Shown here one piece after another: positions 1-16,083 of a DNA stretch of 16,155 bases (position 1 is its first letter; each line of letters starts with the position of its first letter). The position numbers and the translations under genes were made by a program. Origin of the DNA: Tubiluchus corallicola (Eukaryota > Animalia > Priapulida); the NCBI GenBank assembly GCA_030141605.1, contig JAQGDQ010002507.1, forward strand, positions 1 through 16,155, written 5' to 3'. The notes under the pieces were generated by a model. It had not been told where the DNA came from and searched no databases. It saw only the letters and a program-made list of their open reading frames with translations.

Positions 1-1531
1 TTTTTTTCTCTATTTTTTTGTAACTTTTCATTTTTATCATCATATATTTTTTTTAAGTTTTCAATTTCTTTATCAAATTCAATATATTTGATTATCTCGT
101 CTTTAAAATTATTATAAACCTCATTTTCAATAAACTCTACTAGTTGATTTCTAAGCTTAGTTTTTTCAGAAGAGCTATCCTTAATACATTTGTTTATATC
201 CTTTATATTTTTATTAAGTATAGAAATTTTATTTTCAATATTTTCAATCTGACCACTAATATTTTCAGATATACTTATACTCTTTTCAATATTTTTCTTT
301 TTTTTCTCATAATGCTTTATAATTTTTTCAAAGATAGAAATAATGTCATTTTTATCTTTTTCTATGTCATCTAAGTTGATATCTTTAAAAGCTGTAAAAT
401 ATGGTTTTGTATCATTAAACTTAGATTTACTTTTCATAAAAGAATCGTTATAAAAATTTTTAAAATTTTCAATTATATCTTTAATTTTTTTAATTTCTCC
501 ATCTAAAGTATTGATTACTTTATTTTCTTCATCCTCTAAATATTTTTCATATTCTTTAATTAAATTTATAGCTAACTCCTCTTTTAAGCTTTGTTCACAA
601 AAAGGACATACTTCTTTTTTATTTTTGTGGTATATTTCTATTCCTTTTTCAATAAACATTTTATTGGATTTAATTTTTTTCTTAAATTCATCTGAAATAT
701 CAGAACGCTTATAAATCTCTTTCAATAGTGATTTTGAAACTATTTTATCTAAATTTAAACTATCTTTTATGTTATTCCAATTAACTTCTTGTATATTATC
801 TAAATTATCAGGAATTGATTTAAATTTTTCATAACTACTAACTGAGCTAGCATATGTAGGAACTGTAGGATTTCTCTTATGATTTTTATGCTTAATAATT
901 AAGTTTTCCAATGTAATATAAAAAAAACTTCCTGGAGGTTTATGGTTTAAACCTGCCTCCTTTTTAGCGTCTTTTTCTTCTTTTCAATATTTTCTGAAAG
1001 TTCTTTTTTTGTATCTTCAAAATCTTTACTTTTAGCACCATAATTTTCTTTAAGAGAATTTACTTCTCGTTCTTCTTTTTCTAATGAAATTTGATTTTCT
1101 CCAATAATATATCCTTCAAAATTTCCATGAGGTCTAAATTTAGTTTCTCTTAAATTTTTATCAATGAACTCATGATTAAAGCAGTGGTATATATATCCAC
1201 CTGCATCTGTATCATTTAAAGATGGGGGGCTATTTCTTGAGTAATTTATATTAATACTACTTTTAGTTTTCTTTTCACTTTTATCAAAAACTTCAAATTT
1301 AAAACTACTATTTTCTGAGTTAAATTTTAGCATATGATTAAAATTTGTACCTTCAATTTTATTTTTATCTTGAAAGATTTTAAAATTTCTTCCAATAAAG
1401 GTTTTTCCAATGCCATTTCTAGATACTATTAACCACTTTAAACTACTAAGATTATCTTCAAACTTTAATTTTTTAATTGGGCCGATATTTTCAATATCTA
1501 ATTTTACACTTACACTCTTGTTTTTCGACAT
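1..1531 (-). pseudogene. AAA_13 / RloC-like (Rad50-type) ABC ATPase with zinc-hook coiled coil; apparent 1-nt frameshift near 950-985; 3' end runs off the window
   Basis: ORF 947..1531 has SD GAGGGG, N-terminal IENIGPIK and Walker A-like SRNGIGKT. Manual translation of the adjacent (-1) frame from about 970 to base 1 has no stop (DAKKEAGLNHKPPGSFFYITLENL...KMFIEKGIEIYHKNKKEVCPFCEQSLKEE...). It carries a CPFC zinc-hook motif at 608-597 flanked by K/E-rich coiled coil. It could be an intact gene with a consensus error. Confidence 0.75.
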
Positions 1532-1747: not shown

Positions 1748-2488
1748 ATGAAAATATTAGGCGTAATTCCTGCAAGATACGCATCAACTAGATTAGAAGG
1801 AAAGCCTTTAAAATTAATTGGTAAATATCCTATGATTGAATGGGTTTATAAAAGAGCTTTAAAATCAAATTTAGATATGGTTATTGTTGCTACAGATAGT
1901 GAAGATATTTATAATCACATATTAAGAATTGGTGGAAATGCTGTAATGACTTCCGAAGAGCACACTAATGGAACAGAGCGAATAGGAGAAGTTGCTAAAA
2001 AATACCAAGAATATGATTATATAATAAATATTCAAGGTGACGAACCATTAATTGATAAAGAAGTTATTAACTTGCTTATAGAAGGCTTTAAGAATGATTC
2101 AGATATTTATATGAGTACATTGAAATCTAGGTTAGAAAATAATAGTATAAAAGATCCTAATAATGTTAAAGTTATTTGTGACAAAAGTGACTATGCTATG
2201 TATTTTTCTAGGTCTAAAATTCCTTATAATTTGAAAAATACTACTAATTGTAGCTACTATAAACATATTGGAATTTATGGATATTCTAGAGACTTTTTAT
2301 TCAAATATTTAAACCTTCCTCAAGGTATTTTAGAAAATATGGAATCTCTAGAACAATTAAGAGTTTTAGAAAATGGCTATAAAATAAAAGTTTTTGAAAC
2401 TAACTATAAAAACATAAGTGTTGATACTAAAGAAGACCTAGAGAAAATTAATAGCTATATAAAAAATATGGATGTTTCACTTTACTAA
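1748..2488 (+). CDS. kdsB: 3-deoxy-manno-octulosonate cytidylyltransferase (CMP-KDO synthetase)
   Basis: Motifs IPARYASTRLEGKPL, NIQGDEP, YFSRSKIP, HIGIYGY, ESLEQLRVLENG and VDT; 246 aa; good SD. Confidence 0.97.
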   Translation: MKILGVIPARYASTRLEGKPLKLIGKYPMIEWVYKRALKSNLDMVIVATDSEDIYNHILRIGGNAVMTSEEHTNGTERIGEVAKKYQEYDYIINIQGDEPLIDKEVINLLIEGFKNDSDIYMSTLKSRLENNSIKDPNNVKVICDKSDYAMYFSRSKIPYNLKNTTNCSYYKHIGIYGYSRDFLFKYLNLPQGILENMESLEQLRVLENGYKIKVFETNYKNISVDTKEDLEKINSYIKNMDVSLY

Positions 2489-2509
2489 TTAAAAAAATTA
2501 AAGTAAAAT
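2481..2509 (+). promoter_or_regulatory. Putative promoter of the TM1266-hydG-aspA unit, overlapping the kdsB stop
   Basis: TTTACT (2481-2486), 17-nt spacer, TAAAAT (2504-2509); a second TATAAT lies at 2511-2516. Confidence 0.45.
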
Positions 2510-2538
2510 ATATAATGATTTTTATACGGAGGAAGTTT

Positions 2539-2778: not shown

Positions 2779-2805
2779 ATATCCTAACTACAAGGAGAAA
2801 TCTTA

Positions 2806-2859
2806 GTGAAAGGGAAAAATAATATAATTTATGATTATACGAAAGTCTCCTTATCTTGA
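2806..2859 (+). CDS. Putative 17-aa leader peptide MKGKNNIIYDYTKVSLS
   Basis: SD AAGGAG (2792-2797), 8-nt spacing, GTG at 2806; TGA at 2857-2859 falls at the loop/3' arm of the terminator hairpin. Translation is unproven. Confidence 0.35.
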   Translation: MKGKNNIIYDYTKVSLS

Positions 2860-2876
2860 GGAGACCTTTATTTTTT
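2845..2876 (+). terminator. Intrinsic terminator between the TM1266-family gene and hydG
   Basis: Stem GTCTCCTT / GAGGAGAC (one G-U pair), loop ATCTT, followed by CTTTATTTTTT. Confidence 0.8.
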
Positions 2877-2970: not shown

Positions 2971-4395
2971 ATGTACGAAAAATCATGGCAAGAAACTGTA
3001 AAGCAGGAAAACTTTATAAATGAAGTAGAAATAGAAAATATTTTAGATAAATATAAAAATCCCAGTGATTTAGAATTTGAAACAGTGTTGCAAAAAGTGA
3101 TTTCTAAAAAACCTTTTACATACAGTGATGTAGCTATTCTTTTAAATTCTGAAAAAACACAGCAAATCGAAAAAATATTTAATCTTGCAAAGGATATGAA
3201 AAAGAGTGTTTATGGCAACAGAGTAGTTATATTTGCACCTCTATATTTAGGTAATAAATGTACTAATTTGTGTACTTATTGTGGATTTAAAGCAAGTAAT
3301 AGCGATATAAAAAGAAAAACGTTAAATTTAAATGAATTAGAAAAAGAAATTATTGCCCTTGAAGAAGAAGGGCATAAAAGACTTATTATGGTATATGGAA
3401 CTCATCCTGATTTTTCTCCAAATTATATTAAAGAAACTGTAAAAAAAGCTTATGAAACAAAATTACATAATGGAGAGATAAGGCGGATAAATATAAATGC
3501 AGCACCTCTATCTATAGATGAATATAAAATTGTAAAAGAAGCTGAAATAGGCACATATCAGATATTTCAAGAAACTTACCATGAAAAAACCTACAATAAT
3601 GTTCATCCAAAAGGAGGAGAAAAATCAAATTTTAAATGGAGATTATTTGGATTATCTAGAGCTATGGAAGCAGGAATAGACGATGTTGGAATTGGAGCTT
3701 TATTTGGATTGTATAAATGGAAATATGAAGTGATGGGACTTTTTGCTCATGCAAAGCATTTAGAAAGTACATATGGAGTTGGCCCTCATACTATATCTTT
3801 TCCAAGATTAAAAGAAGCACACGGAGTTTATAAAAATTCTAATTATTTAGTTAATGACCTTGAGCTAAAAAGAGTTATTGCTATTTTGCGACTAGCAGTT
3901 CCATATACTGGCCTTATTCTAACTGCAAGAGAAAGCGCTGAACTTAGAAAAGAATGTATGGACATAGGAGTATCTCAAATAGATGCTGGAACTCAAATTG
4001 AACTTCAAGGTTACTCTAAGCAAAAAGAAAAGCAAAATTTAAAAAATGAGCAATTTAAGATAGGAGATAGTAGATCTTTAGATGATATAATATTAGAGCT
4101 TATAAGGTATAAGTATATTCCTTCATTTTGTACAGCTTGCTATAGACTTGGTAGAACAGGAGAACACTTTATGGAGTTTTCTAAGCCTGGTTTTATTCAC
4201 TACTTTTGTACTCCAAATGCTGTACTTACATTAGCTGAATACTTAGAAGACTATGCTAGTGAAAATACAAAAAAAACAGGATATAATTTAATAAATGAGA
4301 TAATAGAAAAAGAAATAACTAAAGAAGATATAAAAAATACTATAAATAAAAAACTAGATAAAATTAAAAATGGATGTAGAGATATTTACTATTAA
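2971..4395 (+). CDS. hydG: [FeFe]-hydrogenase H-cluster radical SAM maturase HydG
   Basis: Radical SAM motif CTNLCTYC, YQIFQETY and GPHTISFPR. The C-terminal auxiliary-cluster motif C-x2-C-x22-C (CTAC...FCTPNA) distinguishes HydG from ThiH; 474 aa; SD GGAGG at 2962-2966. Confidence 0.96.
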   Translation: MYEKSWQETVKQENFINEVEIENILDKYKNPSDLEFETVLQKVISKKPFTYSDVAILLNSEKTQQIEKIFNLAKDMKKSVYGNRVVIFAPLYLGNKCTNLCTYCGFKASNSDIKRKTLNLNELEKEIIALEEEGHKRLIMVYGTHPDFSPNYIKETVKKAYETKLHNGEIRRININAAPLSIDEYKIVKEAEIGTYQIFQETYHEKTYNNVHPKGGEKSNFKWRLFGLSRAMEAGIDDVGIGALFGLYKWKYEVMGLFAHAKHLESTYGVGPHTISFPRLKEAHGVYKNSNYLVNDLELKRVIAILRLAVPYTGLILTARESAELRKECMDIGVSQIDAGTQIELQGYSKQKEKQNLKNEQFKIGDSRSLDDIILELIRYKYIPSFCTACYRLGRTGEHFMEFSKPGFIHYFCTPNAVLTLAEYLEDYASENTKKTGYNLINEIIEKEITKEDIKNTINKKLDKIKNGCRDIYY

Positions 4396-4436: not shown

Positions 4437-5765
4437 ATGAATTATAGAAAAGAAAAAGATGCTATTGGGGAAATAGATATTGAAAATTCTTTATATTACG
4501 GCATCAATACTTATAGAGCTTTAGATAACTTTAAGTATAAAGGGAAAAAAATTCACAGTGAAATAATAAAAGGGCTTGCTTATGTGAAGTATGCTGCTGC
4601 TGAAGCAAACATAAAAATTGAGGCTTTAGACGTAAAAATAGGTGAAGCAATTAAAAAATCTGCTACTGAAATATTAGAAGAAAAGTATATAGATCAGTTT
4701 CCTCTTGCTGCAATTCAAGGGGGAGCTGGAACTTCTGTTAATATGAATTTAAATGAGGTTTTAGCTAATTTAGCTCTTGAAAAATTAGATGAACCTAAAG
4801 GAAAATACGATATAGTTAATCCAATTATTCATGTTAATATGTCTCAGTCAACTAATGATGTTTATCCTACAGGAATAAAAATAGCAGTTATAAAAATGCT
4901 TAGATTATTAATTGAGAAAGTAAAACTGATTCAAGAAGCATTACAAAAAAAAGAAACTGAATACAGCAATATTTATAAATTAGGCAGAACTCAACTTCAA
5001 GATGCTGTTCCAATTAGTTTAGGTCAAGAATTTGGGGCCTATGCAGAAGCCCTTTCTAGAGATAGATGGAGACTTTATAAAGCTGAGGAAAGAATAAGGG
5101 TTATAAATATTGGTGGTACTGCAATTGGTACATGTATTGGAGCTAGTCCTCAATATAAATATTATGTAACTGAAGAGCTAAGGCGAATAACTGGATTAGG
5201 ACTTGCAAGGTCTGAAAATCTGATTGATTCTACTCAAAACTTAGATGTTTTTGCTGAAGTTTCTGGTCTTATAAAAACCTTAGCAATTACTTTAAATAAA
5301 ATAGCTGGCGATTTAAGGCTTATTTCTTCAGGTCCTATATCTGGTTTTAATGAAATAAACATACCAAATGTACAACTAGGATCTTCTATAATGCCTGGAA
5401 AAGTTAACCCTGTTGTTTTAGAATATATACAACAAATATATTTAAAAGTTCTATCAAATGATTTAATTGTTTCTAATGGCTGTGCAAGTGGAGAATTAGA
5501 ACTAAATACGATGTTACCAATAATTTCTGAAGCTATAATAGAGAACATAGAAATATTAACCTATGCTTTAGATACTTTTAAAAATAAAGCTATTGATGGA
5601 ATTACTGTAAATGAAAAAATATGTAGAAAATATATAGAGGAAAGCGATAGTACTATTGCAACATTTATAGGGACATATACATATGAAGAGCTTATAAAAA
5701 TATTAAAAGAAAGTGAAAAAACTGGTATAAATTATAAGAAGTTAATTTATAAAAAATACACTTAG
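4437..5765 (+). CDS. aspA: Aspartate ammonia-lyase (fumarase/aspartase superfamily), hyd-cluster associated type
   Basis: QGGAGTSVNMNLNEV, HVNMSQSTNDVYPT, GRTQLQDAVP and the signature GSSIMPGKVNP. Confidence 0.9.
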   Translation: MNYRKEKDAIGEIDIENSLYYGINTYRALDNFKYKGKKIHSEIIKGLAYVKYAAAEANIKIEALDVKIGEAIKKSATEILEEKYIDQFPLAAIQGGAGTSVNMNLNEVLANLALEKLDEPKGKYDIVNPIIHVNMSQSTNDVYPTGIKIAVIKMLRLLIEKVKLIQEALQKKETEYSNIYKLGRTQLQDAVPISLGQEFGAYAEALSRDRWRLYKAEERIRVINIGGTAIGTCIGASPQYKYYVTEELRRITGLGLARSENLIDSTQNLDVFAEVSGLIKTLAITLNKIAGDLRLISSGPISGFNEINIPNVQLGSSIMPGKVNPVVLEYIQQIYLKVLSNDLIVSNGCASGELELNTMLPIISEAIIENIEILTYALDTFKNKAIDGITVNEKICRKYIEESDSTIATFIGTYTYEELIKILKESEKTGINYKKLIYKKYT

Positions 5766-5918
5766 ATATGAGATTCAGTAGTTATTTATTATAAAGAAAT
5801 AAAATTAAATTTAAATATTAATATATAAATTTTTTAATAAAATTTTAAGAAACTATAAGAAAAGAATACTAGATTTTTTAAATATACTACTAATAATAGA
5901 ATAAAGCTATATTATAAA

Positions 5919-5948
5919 ATAAAACCACTATTAAAATAGTGGTTTTAT
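5919..5948. terminator. Probably bidirectional intrinsic terminator between convergent aspA and XRE genes
   Basis: Perfect 14-bp arms ATAAAACCACTATT-AA-AATAGTGGTTTTAT; overlaps the XRE gene stop codon at 5945-5947. Confidence 0.8.
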
Positions 5949-6142
5949 ATAAAATCTTTAATGTCTTTTTCTAAAGTTTCTGCATATTTTTGTAATGTTT
6001 TTATGTTTGGGGTAACTCCATTTCTCCAATTTCTCAATGTTGTACTTAAGTTTTGTCTTGAAATCCCCATTTGCCTAGCAAACTCACTTTGAGTCATTTT
6101 TTTCTTTTCTAACTCAGTTAGAATTTTTTTTGCTATGTCCAT
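5945..6142 (-). CDS. XRE/Cro-CI family helix-turn-helix transcriptional regulator, 65 aa
   Basis: KKKMTQSEFARQMGISRQNLSTTL...W.NG.TPNIKTLQKYAETL is a typical HTH_3 pattern. SD AAGGAGG lies 8 nt before ATG 6142, which is preferred over GTG 6148. Confidence 0.9.
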   Translation of the reverse strand: MDIAKKILTELEKKKMTQSEFARQMGISRQNLSTTLRNWRNGVTPNIKTLQKYAETLEKDIKDFI

Positions 6143-6193
6143 ATACACTACCTCCTTTTTTACATAATTTCAACTTACATCCTTAACCACCCA

Positions 6194-8918: not shown

Positions 8919-10378
8919 CCTTCCTCCTTGTTATTGTTTTAAATATTAAGTTTATATTTTATATTAAGAATATATAATTATAAGATATTTAGTAAATAAT
9001 TTAAATGATTATAATTAATATTTTATTTTGCATTGAAATAAATACTTTGAAATTTATTAAAATTAATGTATACTTTAAATTATATCATTACATTATATAC
9101 TAATATACTTAAATTTGTGAAATTTATCAAATGATTTTTTATTGTTATATTATTTAAGGAGAAGTTATGGGGTATATTAAGGTTTTAGATGAATCTATTT
9201 CTAATATAATTGCAGCAGGGGAAGTAGTGGAAAATCCATCAAGTATGATTAAAGAACTAATTGAAAACTCTTTAGACGCTAAATCTACTTTTATAAAAAT
9301 AAGAGTAAATAAAAATGGAAGAAATGTTACGATCACTGATAATGGTGTTGGAATGGATAAAGAAGATTTGTTTTTGTCTTTAGAAAGGTTTGCTACAAGT
9401 AAGATTTCTAAAAAAGATGACATTTTTAATTTGACAACTTATGGTTTTAGAGGAGAAGCTCTATCTTCCATATCATCTGTTTCTAAAATAAATATTTCAT
9501 CAAAAACAGTGGAAAAAAAAATTGGATCTAAAATATATGCTAGTGGTGGTAAATATACAAAAATAGAAGATTACTATGGCAAAACTGGAACTATTATAGA
9601 AATAAAAGATCTTTTTTTTAATACTCCTGCTAGATTAAAATTTTTACGTAAAAAATCAACAGAATATAACCATATTAGGGATATTGTTATAAAAGAAGCT
9701 TTAAGTAATTTTAACGTAAGTTTTTCCTTAAGCCTTGATGAAAATACTGTTCTTGAAACCAGTGGTAAAGACATAGAGAATTGTATTTTTGAAATTTTTG
9801 GAAAAAATACATTAAAAAATATTTTAAAATTTGAACTTGGATATTTAGGAAATAGTGAGCTTTTTAAGTCTACTAGAGATAATATTTATGTTTTTATTAA
9901 TAATAGACCTGTAAAATCCACTATCGTTGAAAATGCAATTATAGATGCTTTTTATACAAAGTTATCAAATGGTAGATACCCATTTTCTATTGTTTTATTG
10001 AATATAAATCCTAAAGATGTAGATGTAAATGTACATCCATCAAAAAAAATAGTTAAATTTTCAAATGACAAAAAAATATATGATTATGTATATTCACTTG
10101 CAAATAAATCTATGGAAGATAATGAAAGTTTCTTTTCTCCTAAACTAAAAATAAATACTAATAGATCTTCTATAATAAACACAGAAGAATTTTTATCAAA
10201 TGAAGGTACTAGTATTGATAATTTTGATCTTGATGTTAAAGATGTGACTAAAGAAGATGCTTCTAAATATAATTTAGGTGGGATAAATAATAGAGAGAAA
10301 GGAATAAAAATATCAGAAAATAAAATAGAAAATAAAGTATCTAAAGATAAAACGTATTCAAAGCTAAAGCAAGAAAAT

Positions 10379-10400
10379 AATGACCTAAATGACTAAATGA
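10379..10400 (+). repeat. Degenerate 9-bp tandem repeat at the mutL break
   Basis: AATGACCTA AATGAC-TA AATGA; the second copy lacks one C, which creates the TAA stop. Confidence 0.7.
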
Positions 10401-10441
10401 AATTAACGAAGAACATTTAAAATATAATGAACGGTACATTT

Positions 10442-10477
10442 AATGGTGCTTCTACAAATAATGGTGTTTCTACAAAG
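10442..10477 (+). repeat. 18-bp tandem duplication in the mutL linker
   Basis: AATGGTGCTTCTACAAAT / AATGGTGTTTCTACAAAG (16 of 18 identical; encodes NGASTN NGVSTK). Confidence 0.75.
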
Positions 10478-11112
10478 ATTTTTGATAATAATATTGACAA
10501 AATAAATAAAAACTCATATAGTTTAAATATAGGCACTCCACATAAAATACTTGGACAATTAAAAGATATGTATATAGTTGTTGAAAGTGACAACTCTCTT
10601 GAAATTTATGATCAGCATATAATACAAGAAAGAGTTTTATACGAAAAACTAAAGAAAAAACACTATAATAAAGATATTGCAAGTCAATCTCTTTTAGTAC
10701 CTTTAAAAGTTTTTGTTGATTATAAAGAAAAGACAGTAATTTTTGAAAATATTAATTTGTTAAAAGAATTTGGTTTTGAAATTGAAGAGTTTGGAGATAG
10801 AGAAATACTTATTAGAAGTGTACCTGTTTTTAATTTTAGAGTAAGTGTTGAAAAAACTTTCAAGAATATGATTTCAACTCTTTTAAATGAAACAAATATT
10901 AAAGATTTTAGAGAGCGAATTTTAATAGGTATGTCTTGTAAAAATGCTATAAAAGCAGGAGAAAAATTATCTATTGAAGAAATGAAAATACTTCTTAAAG
11001 ATCTGCATAATTTTGGAAAGTATACCTGTCCACATGGTAGGCCAATTATATTGAAATTGCTATTTAGTGATATTGAAAAAAATTTTAAAAGAAGGTAAAA
11101 AATGAGGTACCT

Positions 11113-13639: not shown

Positions 13640-16083
13640 TTAGGGTTTTTGCAGTAGTTTTTCTTTACTAATTATATTTATATTTTTAGATGGAAGAGAT
13701 TCTAAAAATAATTTACCGTAGGATTTTTTAACAATTCTATTATCAAGAATGGTGATTATACCTTTATCATTTTTACTTCTAATAAGTCTTCCTACACCTT
13801 GTTTTAGCTTTATAATAGATTCTGGAATTTGGTAATCTAAAAATGGGTTTCCCCCTTCATTTTCAATGTTTTCAATAGTTGCTTCAACTATTGGGTCATT
13901 TGGTACTTTAAATGGGAGCTTTACTATAATAACAGAGCTTAGCTTATCCCCTGTGACATCTACACCTTCCCAAAAGCTAGAAGTACCAAATAGTATAGGT
14001 TTTTCACTTAGATTATACATGGTAATAAGTTTATTTCTAGGCATTACACCTTGAATAAACAAATTATATCCCTCATTTTCTAAATCATCTCTTAATAAAT
14101 AGTATAAAAAATTCAGTGATGAATAAGATGTAAATAAAACAAAAGTGTTTCCATTATTTCTTATGATTAAGCTACTTACGATCTCTTTAATTTCTGATAT
14201 AAAACTTATACTATTAGGATCTGGAATATCTTTAGGTATGTATACTTTCATTTGATTGTCATAGTTAAATGGGGATGATATAATTCCTTCAATAACCTTT
14301 TCGTTTAACCCAATAGAATCTTTAAAATACTGAAAGTCATTTCCAATTGCAATAGTTGCAGATGTAAATATAATGTTTGATAAGTAATAAAAAAGAGTAT
14401 CTGCAAGTTCATCATTAATTTTCAATGGAGTTGCAACTAATTTAACATTGTTTTTTTTAGGGTTAATTGATAACCAATATATAAAGCTCTGATCCTCAAG
14501 ATTTACAATAGTTTTTAGATCTATAAAGATTGATTCTACTCTATTTACATATTTTATAAAGTTATTTATTGTACCGTCATCATCCTCACAATCTTTTATT
14601 AAAGTAATAACCTTTGAAATACTTTTCATATATTTTTTAAAAATAATATACAATTCTTTTTCTTTTTCTAAAATATTATCCCAAAGTGAATTTTTTTTTA
14701 GGCTTTTATTTTGTAATCTGATATTAATAGATCTACTTTTATCCTTTGAAAATGTGTCTATTATAAAATTAAAGTAAAGATTAGTTTCCTTATAAAGGTC
14801 CTTATGTAAAGGAGAAATATCGTTTAAGAAATATTCTTTTATTTTTTCACTTTCTTCAAACTTAATGTTATTTAAATAGTTTATAAGTAACTTGAAACTA
14901 CCTAATGACTTTTCATTAGATAAGTTACTAAGACGGTTCATGTTTCTATTAAAACCATATTTAGAAACTTCCACAGAAAAATAACTTTGTGCAACATTTT
15001 TTATATTTGAGCTTCATCAAATACTACACAGTCATAATCAAGCAAAATTGCATAATCAGTATGAAATCCAACTTCCTTTCTTATAGAAAGATCTGCAAAA
15101 AACATATGGTGGTTTGTAATAAATACATCTGCTTTTGATTTTTCTAGCCTAGCTAAATTAAAAAAACATCTAGATTTATATTTACACTTATTCCCAGAAC
15201 ATAAGTCACTTTCACAATTAAAATTTTCCCAAATTGACATACTAATTTCAAAATATAACTCATTTTTATCTCCAATTTTTGTACTTTGAGACCACTTCAG
15301 TATTTTTTCATATTGATCCTTTTGAGAGTCTGATAATTTTTCAAAATTTATATTAGCGTTTTTAGAAAAATTTAGAGTTTTTAATAAGCAAAGGTAATTT
15401 CCCATACCTTTTATTAAAGTATAAGAAAAAGAATTATTCATAAGCTTACTAACTATAGGTATGTCTTTATTTAAAAGCTGTTCTTGTAGATTAATAGTAT
15501 TTGTGCTAAGTATAATTTTTTTTTCATTTTTTATTGCCCATTCTATTGTTGGAATTAGATATGCTAAAGTTTTGCCAGTTCCTGTGCCTGCTTCAACAAT
15601 AACTTTAGATTTTTCATTTAAGCCTTTTTCTACTAGTTTAGCCATTTCTAGCTGCTCTTTTCTATACTCAAATGATGAAAAAATAGAGCTTAAGAGTCCA
15701 TTTTCCTCAAAATAAGGTTTTATATCTATAATTTCATTTTTTTTATTGGGAAGTTCAATAATAATATATATATCGTCTACATTGTTGTTGATTATATAGG
15801 ATGCACCGTTTTTCTTTTTTGAATATAAAACAGCAATTTCTATATCTGCATCAGAGGGATAAAGGTATCCTGAAGGGTGATTATGTATAATTACCTCATT
15901 TTTTTTCATTCTATTTATCATAGCAGGTACTGAATGTCTATTTCCCCTAGCAAATACTTCTATGTCTATTACTACGTTATTATCTACTATTCCTCTAAAG
16001 AAAACTTCATTTCCTGAAGCCTCTGTAATAGCTGTTTTTATTTTTTTAATAGCATTATTTGAAATTTTTTCATAAATATCCAT
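13640..16083 (-). pseudogene. dinG: DinG/XPD-family Fe-S DNA helicase with an N-terminal JAB/RadC-like domain; one base missing in the DEAH box
   Basis: ORF 15001..16083: JAMM motif HNHPSGYLYPSDAD, Q motif YRKEQ, Walker A AGTGTGKT, Fe-S cysteines, and DEA. ORF 13640..14974: FTSAT, LFTSY, SFWEGVDV, KLPF and QGVGRLIRS. Adding one base near 15007/15008 gives DEAH-NIKNVAQSYFSVEVSKY and a continuous 814-aa protein. Confidence 0.9.

Follow-up and report, generated by a model that had tools for sequence, protein, structure and literature searches.

A conserved two-fold symmetric hairpin between a TM1266-family gene and hydG is a candidate TM1266-dependent attenuator

Analysis of the window, the whole 16,155-nt stretch of DNA considered here, reveals a two-fold symmetric hairpin followed by an intrinsic terminator-like stem in the 192-nt gap between a TM1266-family gene and the maturase gene hydG. 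Comparative sequence analysis indicates that this element represents a real, conserved and apparently uncatalogued cis-regulatory RNA family. The hairpin and terminator together probably constitute a TM1266-dependent attenuator of hydG with PyrR-like logic, in which protein binding would favour termination. The earlier note on this DNA had proposed an RNA switch gating hydG; that general idea is upheld by the conserved and covarying structure, the associated genes and the lack of Rfam matches, whereas the switching helix it put forward is not conserved. The note had also missed that the gene immediately upstream encodes a TM1266-family 'iron-only hydrogenase system regulator'. Table 1 lists the features of the locus.

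Table 1. Features of the TM1266-hydG locus, with positions in the window
Feature	Position	Strand	Basis or remark
kdsB	1748-2488		upstream neighbour of the TM1266-family gene
Promoter-like site, 10/12 match	2489..2516	+	predicted; upstream of the TM1266-family gene
TM1266-family gene, 79 aa	2539..2778	+	TIGR03959, 98 bits (cut-off 60.8); PF21699 over cut-off; PDB 2nzc match
Two-fold symmetric hairpin	2782..2814	+	alignment, covariation, covariance model R2
Hairpin P1	2782-2785/2811-2814	+	
Hairpin internal loop, outer	2786-2787/2810	+	
Hairpin P2	2788-2791/2806-2809	+	CUAC with GUGA, one C.A mismatch; covarying helix
Hairpin internal loop, inner	2792/2804-2805	+	
Hairpin P3	2793-2795/2801-2803	+	
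AAGGAGA inner strand	2792..2798	+	exact complement of the terminator 5' arm, in the window copy only; possible minor alternative helix
Hairpin 3' tail, conserved antiterminator strand	2810..2817	+	pairs with 2846-2852, one A.C mismatch in the window
AT-rich spacer hairpin	2823..2839	+	bridges tail and terminator arm; recurs as a fold in relatives, with no conserved sequence
Intrinsic terminator-like stem (9 pairs) and U-rich tail	2845..2876	+	stem 2845-2865, tail 2866-2876; sequence and folding
hydG	2971..4395	+	TIGR03955, 505 bits (cut-off 312); start codon ATG at 2971
Aspartate ammonia-lyase-like gene (aspA)	4437..5765	+	PRK12273 over cut-off

For the TM1266-family gene, the ATG behind GGAGG (2528-2532) was taken as the start, the ORF caller having placed it at 2515, and 4 nt separate the stop codon from the hairpin. 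Downstream, aspA is likely co-transcribed with hydG; PMC11736057 records aspA in hyd operons. Neither hydE nor hydF follows the hydG-aspA unit in the window, the next gene being a small HTH gene on the opposite strand (region 4437-6148). The window HydG has its nearest relatives among the Fusobacteriota (62-70% identity) and also falls inside the Fusobacteriota clade of the HydG tree. Public contigs from run X1, possibly the source sample (2717-2902), and from another study, X3 (2636-2833), reproduce the element with 0 differences or gaps, so assembly error does not account for the motif letters. Assembly may be less than perfect in the AT-rich DNA that separates the terminator from hydG, since within 2903-2962 the X2 contig carries 5 extra bases after 2905 and no X1 contig is present. 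Elsewhere, mutL (9167-11098) looks split into two ORFs, probably through an assembly error because the X1 and X2 contigs each carry one extra base at 10393. Frameshifts near A-runs in a JAB-domain/DinG-like helicase gene (13640-16083, minus strand) and in a putative ATPase gene with a long coiled coil (3-1531, minus strand) reflect either assembly errors or real breaks.

Alignment of the copies yields the consensus CU-RA-N4-A-AG on both strands in dyad, generating two identical 2x1 internal loops that flank a four-pair helix, with a variable cap. Only about 12 bases of this simple hairpin are conserved, and neither a conserved apical loop nor a tertiary partner is seen. In the MAFFT alignment of 30 copies, pairing cells reach 92.4%, compensatory changes are seen at each of the four central P2 pairs (21 cells), and covariation scores 0.307, compared with 0.132 +/- 0.014 for shuffles, none of 500 shuffles reaching it and slid controls remaining at or below 0.123; RNAalifold independently predicts the same central helix. 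A broader set of 35 model-fitted rows, biased towards the model and including two or three doubtful rows, contains 64 compensatory cells, and kinship among rows inflates both tests. The many G-U pairs indicate that the motif acts as RNA of the plus strand. Because the 33-nt hairpin of the window is no more stable than its shuffles (fold z -0.37), its reality rests on conservation and covariation. Comparison of hydG upstream regions from relatives, as the earlier note had advised, thus finds the hairpin conserved with covarying central pairs, and the hairpins described at 2782-2814 and 2823-2839 both fold as stated. The ACT/AGT register gives way to the CUAC/GUGA helix, and the GAAA tetraloop is not a family feature, loop length and sequence varying among relatives.

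The window copy scores 32.6 bits (E 2.5e-6) with covariance model R2, whose training rows exclude it, and departs from the consensus at two motif positions; it has a C.A mismatch in P2 and a U at 2804 that occurs in 1 of 30 rows. The by-eye judgement that the element fits no known family agrees with the covariance-model scan against Rfam, which, with TPP, SAM, T-box, c-di-GMP, Moco, NiCo and PyrR among the families covered, found nothing at the window element at E <= 5 and nothing relevant in 30 related loci (E <= 2), the sole overlap being a sub-threshold L10_leader match in L152 (E 0.84). A CsrA-type GGA loop was dropped because GGA is not conserved among copies.

The terminator that had been placed about 95 nt before hydG is indeed present as a stem with a U-rich tail, ending 94 nt before the ATG; 105 nt lie between stem end and start codon. 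It folds with z -4.55 relative to shuffles and is the sole terminator-like site in 2440-2990 (shuffles 0.1 +/- 0.3). The antiterminator originally proposed, AAGGAGA with TCTCCTT, is an exact complement in the window, but relatives use the 3' tail of the hairpin. Specifically, among 43 loci (47 motif loci minus L007, L009, L013 and L165, in which no terminator was found; three terminators were placed by hand), the tail outpairs the inner AAGG strand on the terminator 5' arm in 34. Tail/arm pairing is specific to the locus, with a mean of -9.67 kcal/mol against -7.51 after permutation (z -7.1, 0 of 10000), whereas pairing of the inner AAGGAG strand is not (z -0.3, 3604 of 10000 permutations). 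The window is among the 9 exceptions by duplex energy (inner -9.7, tail -5.3). In its computed nascent RNA, the tail helix has a probability of 0.61 at position 2856, with the AAGGAGA helix at 0.22, rising to about 0.9 (0.92) at 2860, with the AAGGAGA helix at 0.03; the tail helix reaches at least 0.98 in 12 of 12 relatives. The non-terminated fold of the window lies 11.8 kcal/mol above the terminated fold, compared with 1.6-9.9 in the others, making this antiterminator the weakest of 13, and in view of this largest gap the window copy may be tighter or partly decayed. The AT-rich third hairpin, earlier seen as a bridge between the antiterminator strands, is upheld in its folding (z <= -2 in 8 of the 12 loci with a spacer; window -2.3) and not in its sequence.

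By computation, the binding hairpin, antiterminator and terminator are mutually exclusive, with P1 and antiterminator overlapping by 3-4 nt. Against the attenuator reading, P1 covers just the first 3-4 nt of the tail, and P1 coexists with the tail helix in the computed non-terminated fold of 3 of 12 relatives; the weak antiterminator of the window and its two off-consensus motif positions also weigh against it. In Psychrilyobacter-type loci, folding did not reproduce a translational switch, the ribosome site being predicted paired in both states. The distance from terminator to hydG start is only 22-31 nt in 7 of 11 relatives, which leaves no room for a promoter, so hydG must there be read through the terminator. 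For the window, the earlier note had seen no convincing promoter before hydG; two weak 9/12 promoter-like matches (2895-2922 and 2916-2945) lie in this AT-rich DNA, where 9 such sites were found in 550 nt against 4.9 +/- 2.0 by chance, and a promoter there is therefore possible. A search for Rex-like operators returned 6 matches against 6.2 by chance, with 0 near the element.

The motif occurs in Fusobacteriota, Bacillota, Omnitrophota, Planctomycetota and Cloacimonadota, standing before TM1266 in the last three. Among 21 Fusobacteriota hydG loci with upstream DNA, it lies between the two genes in 18 of 18 in which TM1266 directly precedes hydG and is absent from the 3 without TM1266; 15 of these hairpins were detected by a strict scanner and those of L005, L008 and L022 by eye and alignment, with 2 to 80 nt between stop codon and hairpin. 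Covariance model R1 gave 18 matches at E < 1e-5 in 151 Fusobacteriota genomes, one per genome and each directly behind TM1266, many of them training rows. A further 13 weak R1 matches (12 inspected), away from TM1266 and hydG, were taken as noise, as were 6 of 12 new Omnitrophota matches. Across 190 Fusobacteriota genomes, 107 carry hydG and 37 of these carry TM1266. R2 matched 0 of the 70 genomes with hydG and without TM1266, in a search that recovered 3 of 10 TM1266-positive genomes, covariance models missing divergent copies. Six of the seven missed genomes were inspected with a scanner, and all six carry a dyad of variant form, with 2x2 loops, that overlaps the ribosome site of hydG; the same scanner matched 1 of 27 TM1266-negative regions, inside coding sequence. 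Two Bacteroidota-group hydG loci contain neither TM1266 in the locus nor the motif.

In the Bacillota group, about 45% of sampled genomes encode TM1266. At E <= 0.05, R1, which has no Bacillota training rows, matches 10 of 30 Bacillota TM1266 loci, always within the leader that precedes TM1266. Of 18 R2 matches across 80 Bacillota genomes, 14 lie in the leader of TM1266, hydG, hydE or an ECF gene and are spread over 12 of 36 TM1266-positive genomes (2 training rows) and 0 of 44 TM1266-negative ones; the other 4 are intragenic, all in TM1266-negative genomes. Twelve Bacillota genomes with hydG and without TM1266 show no motif within 1.5 kb, hydG being operon-internal in about half. Ten genomes were then selected in which the TM1266 locus, mostly behind a divIVA-like gene, has neither the motif nor an adjacent hydG. 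In 8 of them the motif precedes the distant hydG (one weakly, E 0.078), and all 12 matches precede either hydG (8 genomes) or an ECF S-component gene (4; PF12822), two genomes having none. Overall, 6 of 29 ECF S-component genes are preceded by the motif, all in TM1266-positive genomes; with the ECF protein as query, the metagenome scan yielded no relative. In L232-L236 and L257 (also L164 and L168-L170), the motif overlaps the ribosome site of the S-component gene.

TM1266 therefore co-occurs with the RNA site also in trans. Four Fusobacteriota TM1266-positive loci without a recognisable dyad (L060, L063, L064 and L071) and the silence of R2 in 24 of the 36 TM1266-positive Bacillota genomes count against the attenuator reading. 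Gene and motif are often adjacent, and a single deletion removing both accounts for part of the co-occurrence; in a quick HydG tree of 65 hand-picked rows (L134 labelled by eye), the TM1266-negative state requires 9 changes, at least 5 of them forced by strong branches. A different conserved leader, comprising a promoter, about 110 conserved nt and a terminator, precedes TM1266-hydG in L060 (1760-1960, minus strand), L063 and L064 (1270-1470, plus strand); neither Rfam nor R2 matches it, and a half-site variant of the loop may lie within it. In several Bacillota leaders (L141, L145, L147, L130, L133 and L175), an extra hairpin with a single CCU-GA/R-AGG loop stands before the dyad, and full tandem dyad copies are present in L149, L135 and L103.

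The predicted structure of the TM1266-family protein (pLDDT 94) adopts a single beta-alpha-beta-beta-alpha-beta domain of 79 aa. Its closest fold is 2nzc (Z 16.1, rmsd 1.0, 79 aligned), a four-chain structure, followed by NikR C-terminal and ACT domains at Z 11-13, a kinship of fold. The 70 aligned sequences contain no invariant or near-invariant His or Cys of the kind expected for NikR-type nickel ligands, and no DNA-binding domain is present, the match being to the C-terminal part of NikR and not to a ribbon-helix-helix. Residues R34, Y39, R40, K64 and K74 are invariant, an Arg/Lys/Tyr set that is compatible with a candidate RNA-binding role. A symmetric oligomer would suit the RNA site, since the conserved positions make up two identical, dyad-related loops. 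On this reading TM1266 would be an RNA-binding regulator.

In the proposed mechanism, RNA polymerase would pass from the TM1266 gene into the hairpin. With no protein bound, the weak hairpin would release its 3' tail (AAGGG...) to pair with the terminator 5' arm, and hydG-aspA would be transcribed; a TM1266 oligomer seated on the two identical loops would hold P1, withhold the tail and let the terminator form, turning hydG off. Where the hairpin covers a ribosome-binding site, TM1266 binding would block translation, so that the transcriptional and translational platforms would both indicate that bound means off. The level of TM1266 itself is not what the switch would control, because the gene lies upstream here and at a distance in some Bacillota; its upstream position makes simple autoregulation unlikely and implies a ligand signal. 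A small effector held in the ACT-like fold probably gates binding, the best guess being a product or substrate of H-cluster synthesis. More tentatively, TM1266 might be a stand-alone ACT/NikR-fold RNA-binding sensor of an H-cluster precursor or by-product, running through the dyad hairpin, across anaerobic bacteria, a feedback regulon dedicated to the supply of [FeFe]-hydrogenase cofactor. Its members would be hydG, hydE, hydF, aspA and an ECF transporter, the last perhaps importing the compound that is sensed. In L120, L121, L123, L129, L139, L143 and L146, TM1266 sits between genes that, judged from sequence, are presumably divIVA-like and MTA/SAH nucleosidase-like. MTA/SAH nucleosidase also clears 5'-deoxyadenosine, a by-product of radical-SAM chemistry, and this neighbour is a possible hint at the effector.

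The main rival, a protein-free riboswitch in which the symmetric loops bind a ligand or ion (e.g. a radical-SAM or H-cluster product) and TM1266 is only a co-regulated partner, appears unlikely. The element shares with riboswitches in general a conserved covarying structure joined to an expression platform, here of terminator and ribosome-site types, and tandem copies exist (L149, L103). The regulon includes an ECF transporter S component, and ECF transporter control is common among vitamin riboswitches. Such an RNA would need no TM1266, however, yet the motif is missing from the 70 Fusobacteriota and 12 Bacillota genomes with hydG and without TM1266, so that its distribution tracks the partner protein and not the pathway, and with only about a dozen conserved bases it is a simple hairpin. 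A protein-dependent attenuator is favoured over it because the motif follows the TM1266 gene. That same distribution speaks against another binder, whether HydG, HydE or HydF in feedback or an unlinked regulator, and against opening of the hairpin by the ribosome that ends TM1266. These variants fit the motif's constant position before maturase genes or an operon head, ECF copies excepted, and its closeness to the TM1266 stop codon (at it or a few bases away) in several Fusobacteriota, but the variable stop-to-hairpin distance and the 5' leader position in other phyla render them improbable.

There is little to suggest that, within a family that is a real switch, the window copy has degenerated into a largely constitutive terminator and that hydG depends on leaky readthrough or on a weak promoter beyond that terminator. 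The weakest antiterminator of 13, the C.A mismatch, the unusual U at 2804, the 105-nt stem-start distance and the two weak promoter-like sites would accord with decay; against it, the window copy retains its R2 score, its tail helix still dominates in nascent RNA to 2860, and the extra AAGGAGA complement would likewise oppose termination. Scarcely credible is a DNA operator for TM1266 made of two CTRA-N4-AAG repeats. The motif does read as a direct repeat in DNA, and public annotation and PMC6391272 name the protein a CopG-family transcription factor, but the two N4 stretches stay mutually complementary with many G-U pairs, repeat spacing varies widely, and the 79-aa ACT-like fold has no ribbon-helix-helix part.

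Under the attenuator reading, the dyad element apparently works like a PyrR-type attenuator while belonging to no catalogued family. The PyrR-dependent attenuators of the Bacillus subtilis pyr operon (Rfam RF00515) arrange anti-antiterminator, antiterminator and terminator in series, terminate when protein is bound, and lie at times inside an operon downstream of the regulator gene. The dyad element differs in having no RF00515 match and no PyrR binding loop, and PyrR has a phosphoribosyltransferase fold, whereas TM1266 has a NikR-C/ACT fold; the RNA site here is two-fold symmetric. The RAT hairpins of BglG/SacY/LicT resemble the dyad in their length of about 30 nt and their two small asymmetric internal loops suiting a protein dimer; binding prevents termination there but would allow it here, the sequence differs, and TM1266 has no CAT-type domain. 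HydG is a homologue of ThiH, and the P4-P5 arm of the TPP riboswitch bears a superficial likeness (CCUGA ... AGGGA around a short helix); the dyad loops are instead 2x1 and repeated in dyad, a pyrimidine-binding arm is absent, and no TPP match was found at E <= 5.

Open full-text literature yielded no description of the dyad RNA, which the supplements of PMC5737381 and PMC11109978 might list; term look-ups in the body of PMC11109978 and of PMC8632094, and in the readable supplements of PMC8632094 and PMC6429828, gave no hydG or hydrogenase motif. PMC6391272 calls the regulon of the TM1266 orthologue unknown and does not use the words riboswitch or attenuat-. The redox-sensing Rex is the sole printed control found for TM1266-hydG, to which the dyad RNA adds another candidate. 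Rex controls this unit in Caldicellulosiruptor bescii and Clostridium thermocellum (PMC6391272, PMC8457756), binding upstream of it (PMC6391272), with its regulon treated in PMC8457756. Rex thus shares the gene pair with the dyad element but is a DNA-binding repressor at the promoter.

HydG makes the H-cluster iron unit carrying CO and cyanide, according to PMC6391272, and cells thus have a reason to ration it. The motif supplies a precise target for the widespread TM1266, a protein of uncharacterised function with structure 2nzc, and the transporter in the regulon that the motif defines may lead to the effector. The candidate off-switch could limit hydrogenase yield in hydrogen-producing strains. 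If TM1266 were indeed a feedback sensor, this would be the first case of cofactor feedback acting on hydrogenase maturation, and TM1266 would found a new class of RNA-binding regulators. PMC7039931 reports that the TM1266 orthologue, hydG and hydE change together about 6-7.5-fold under CO2.
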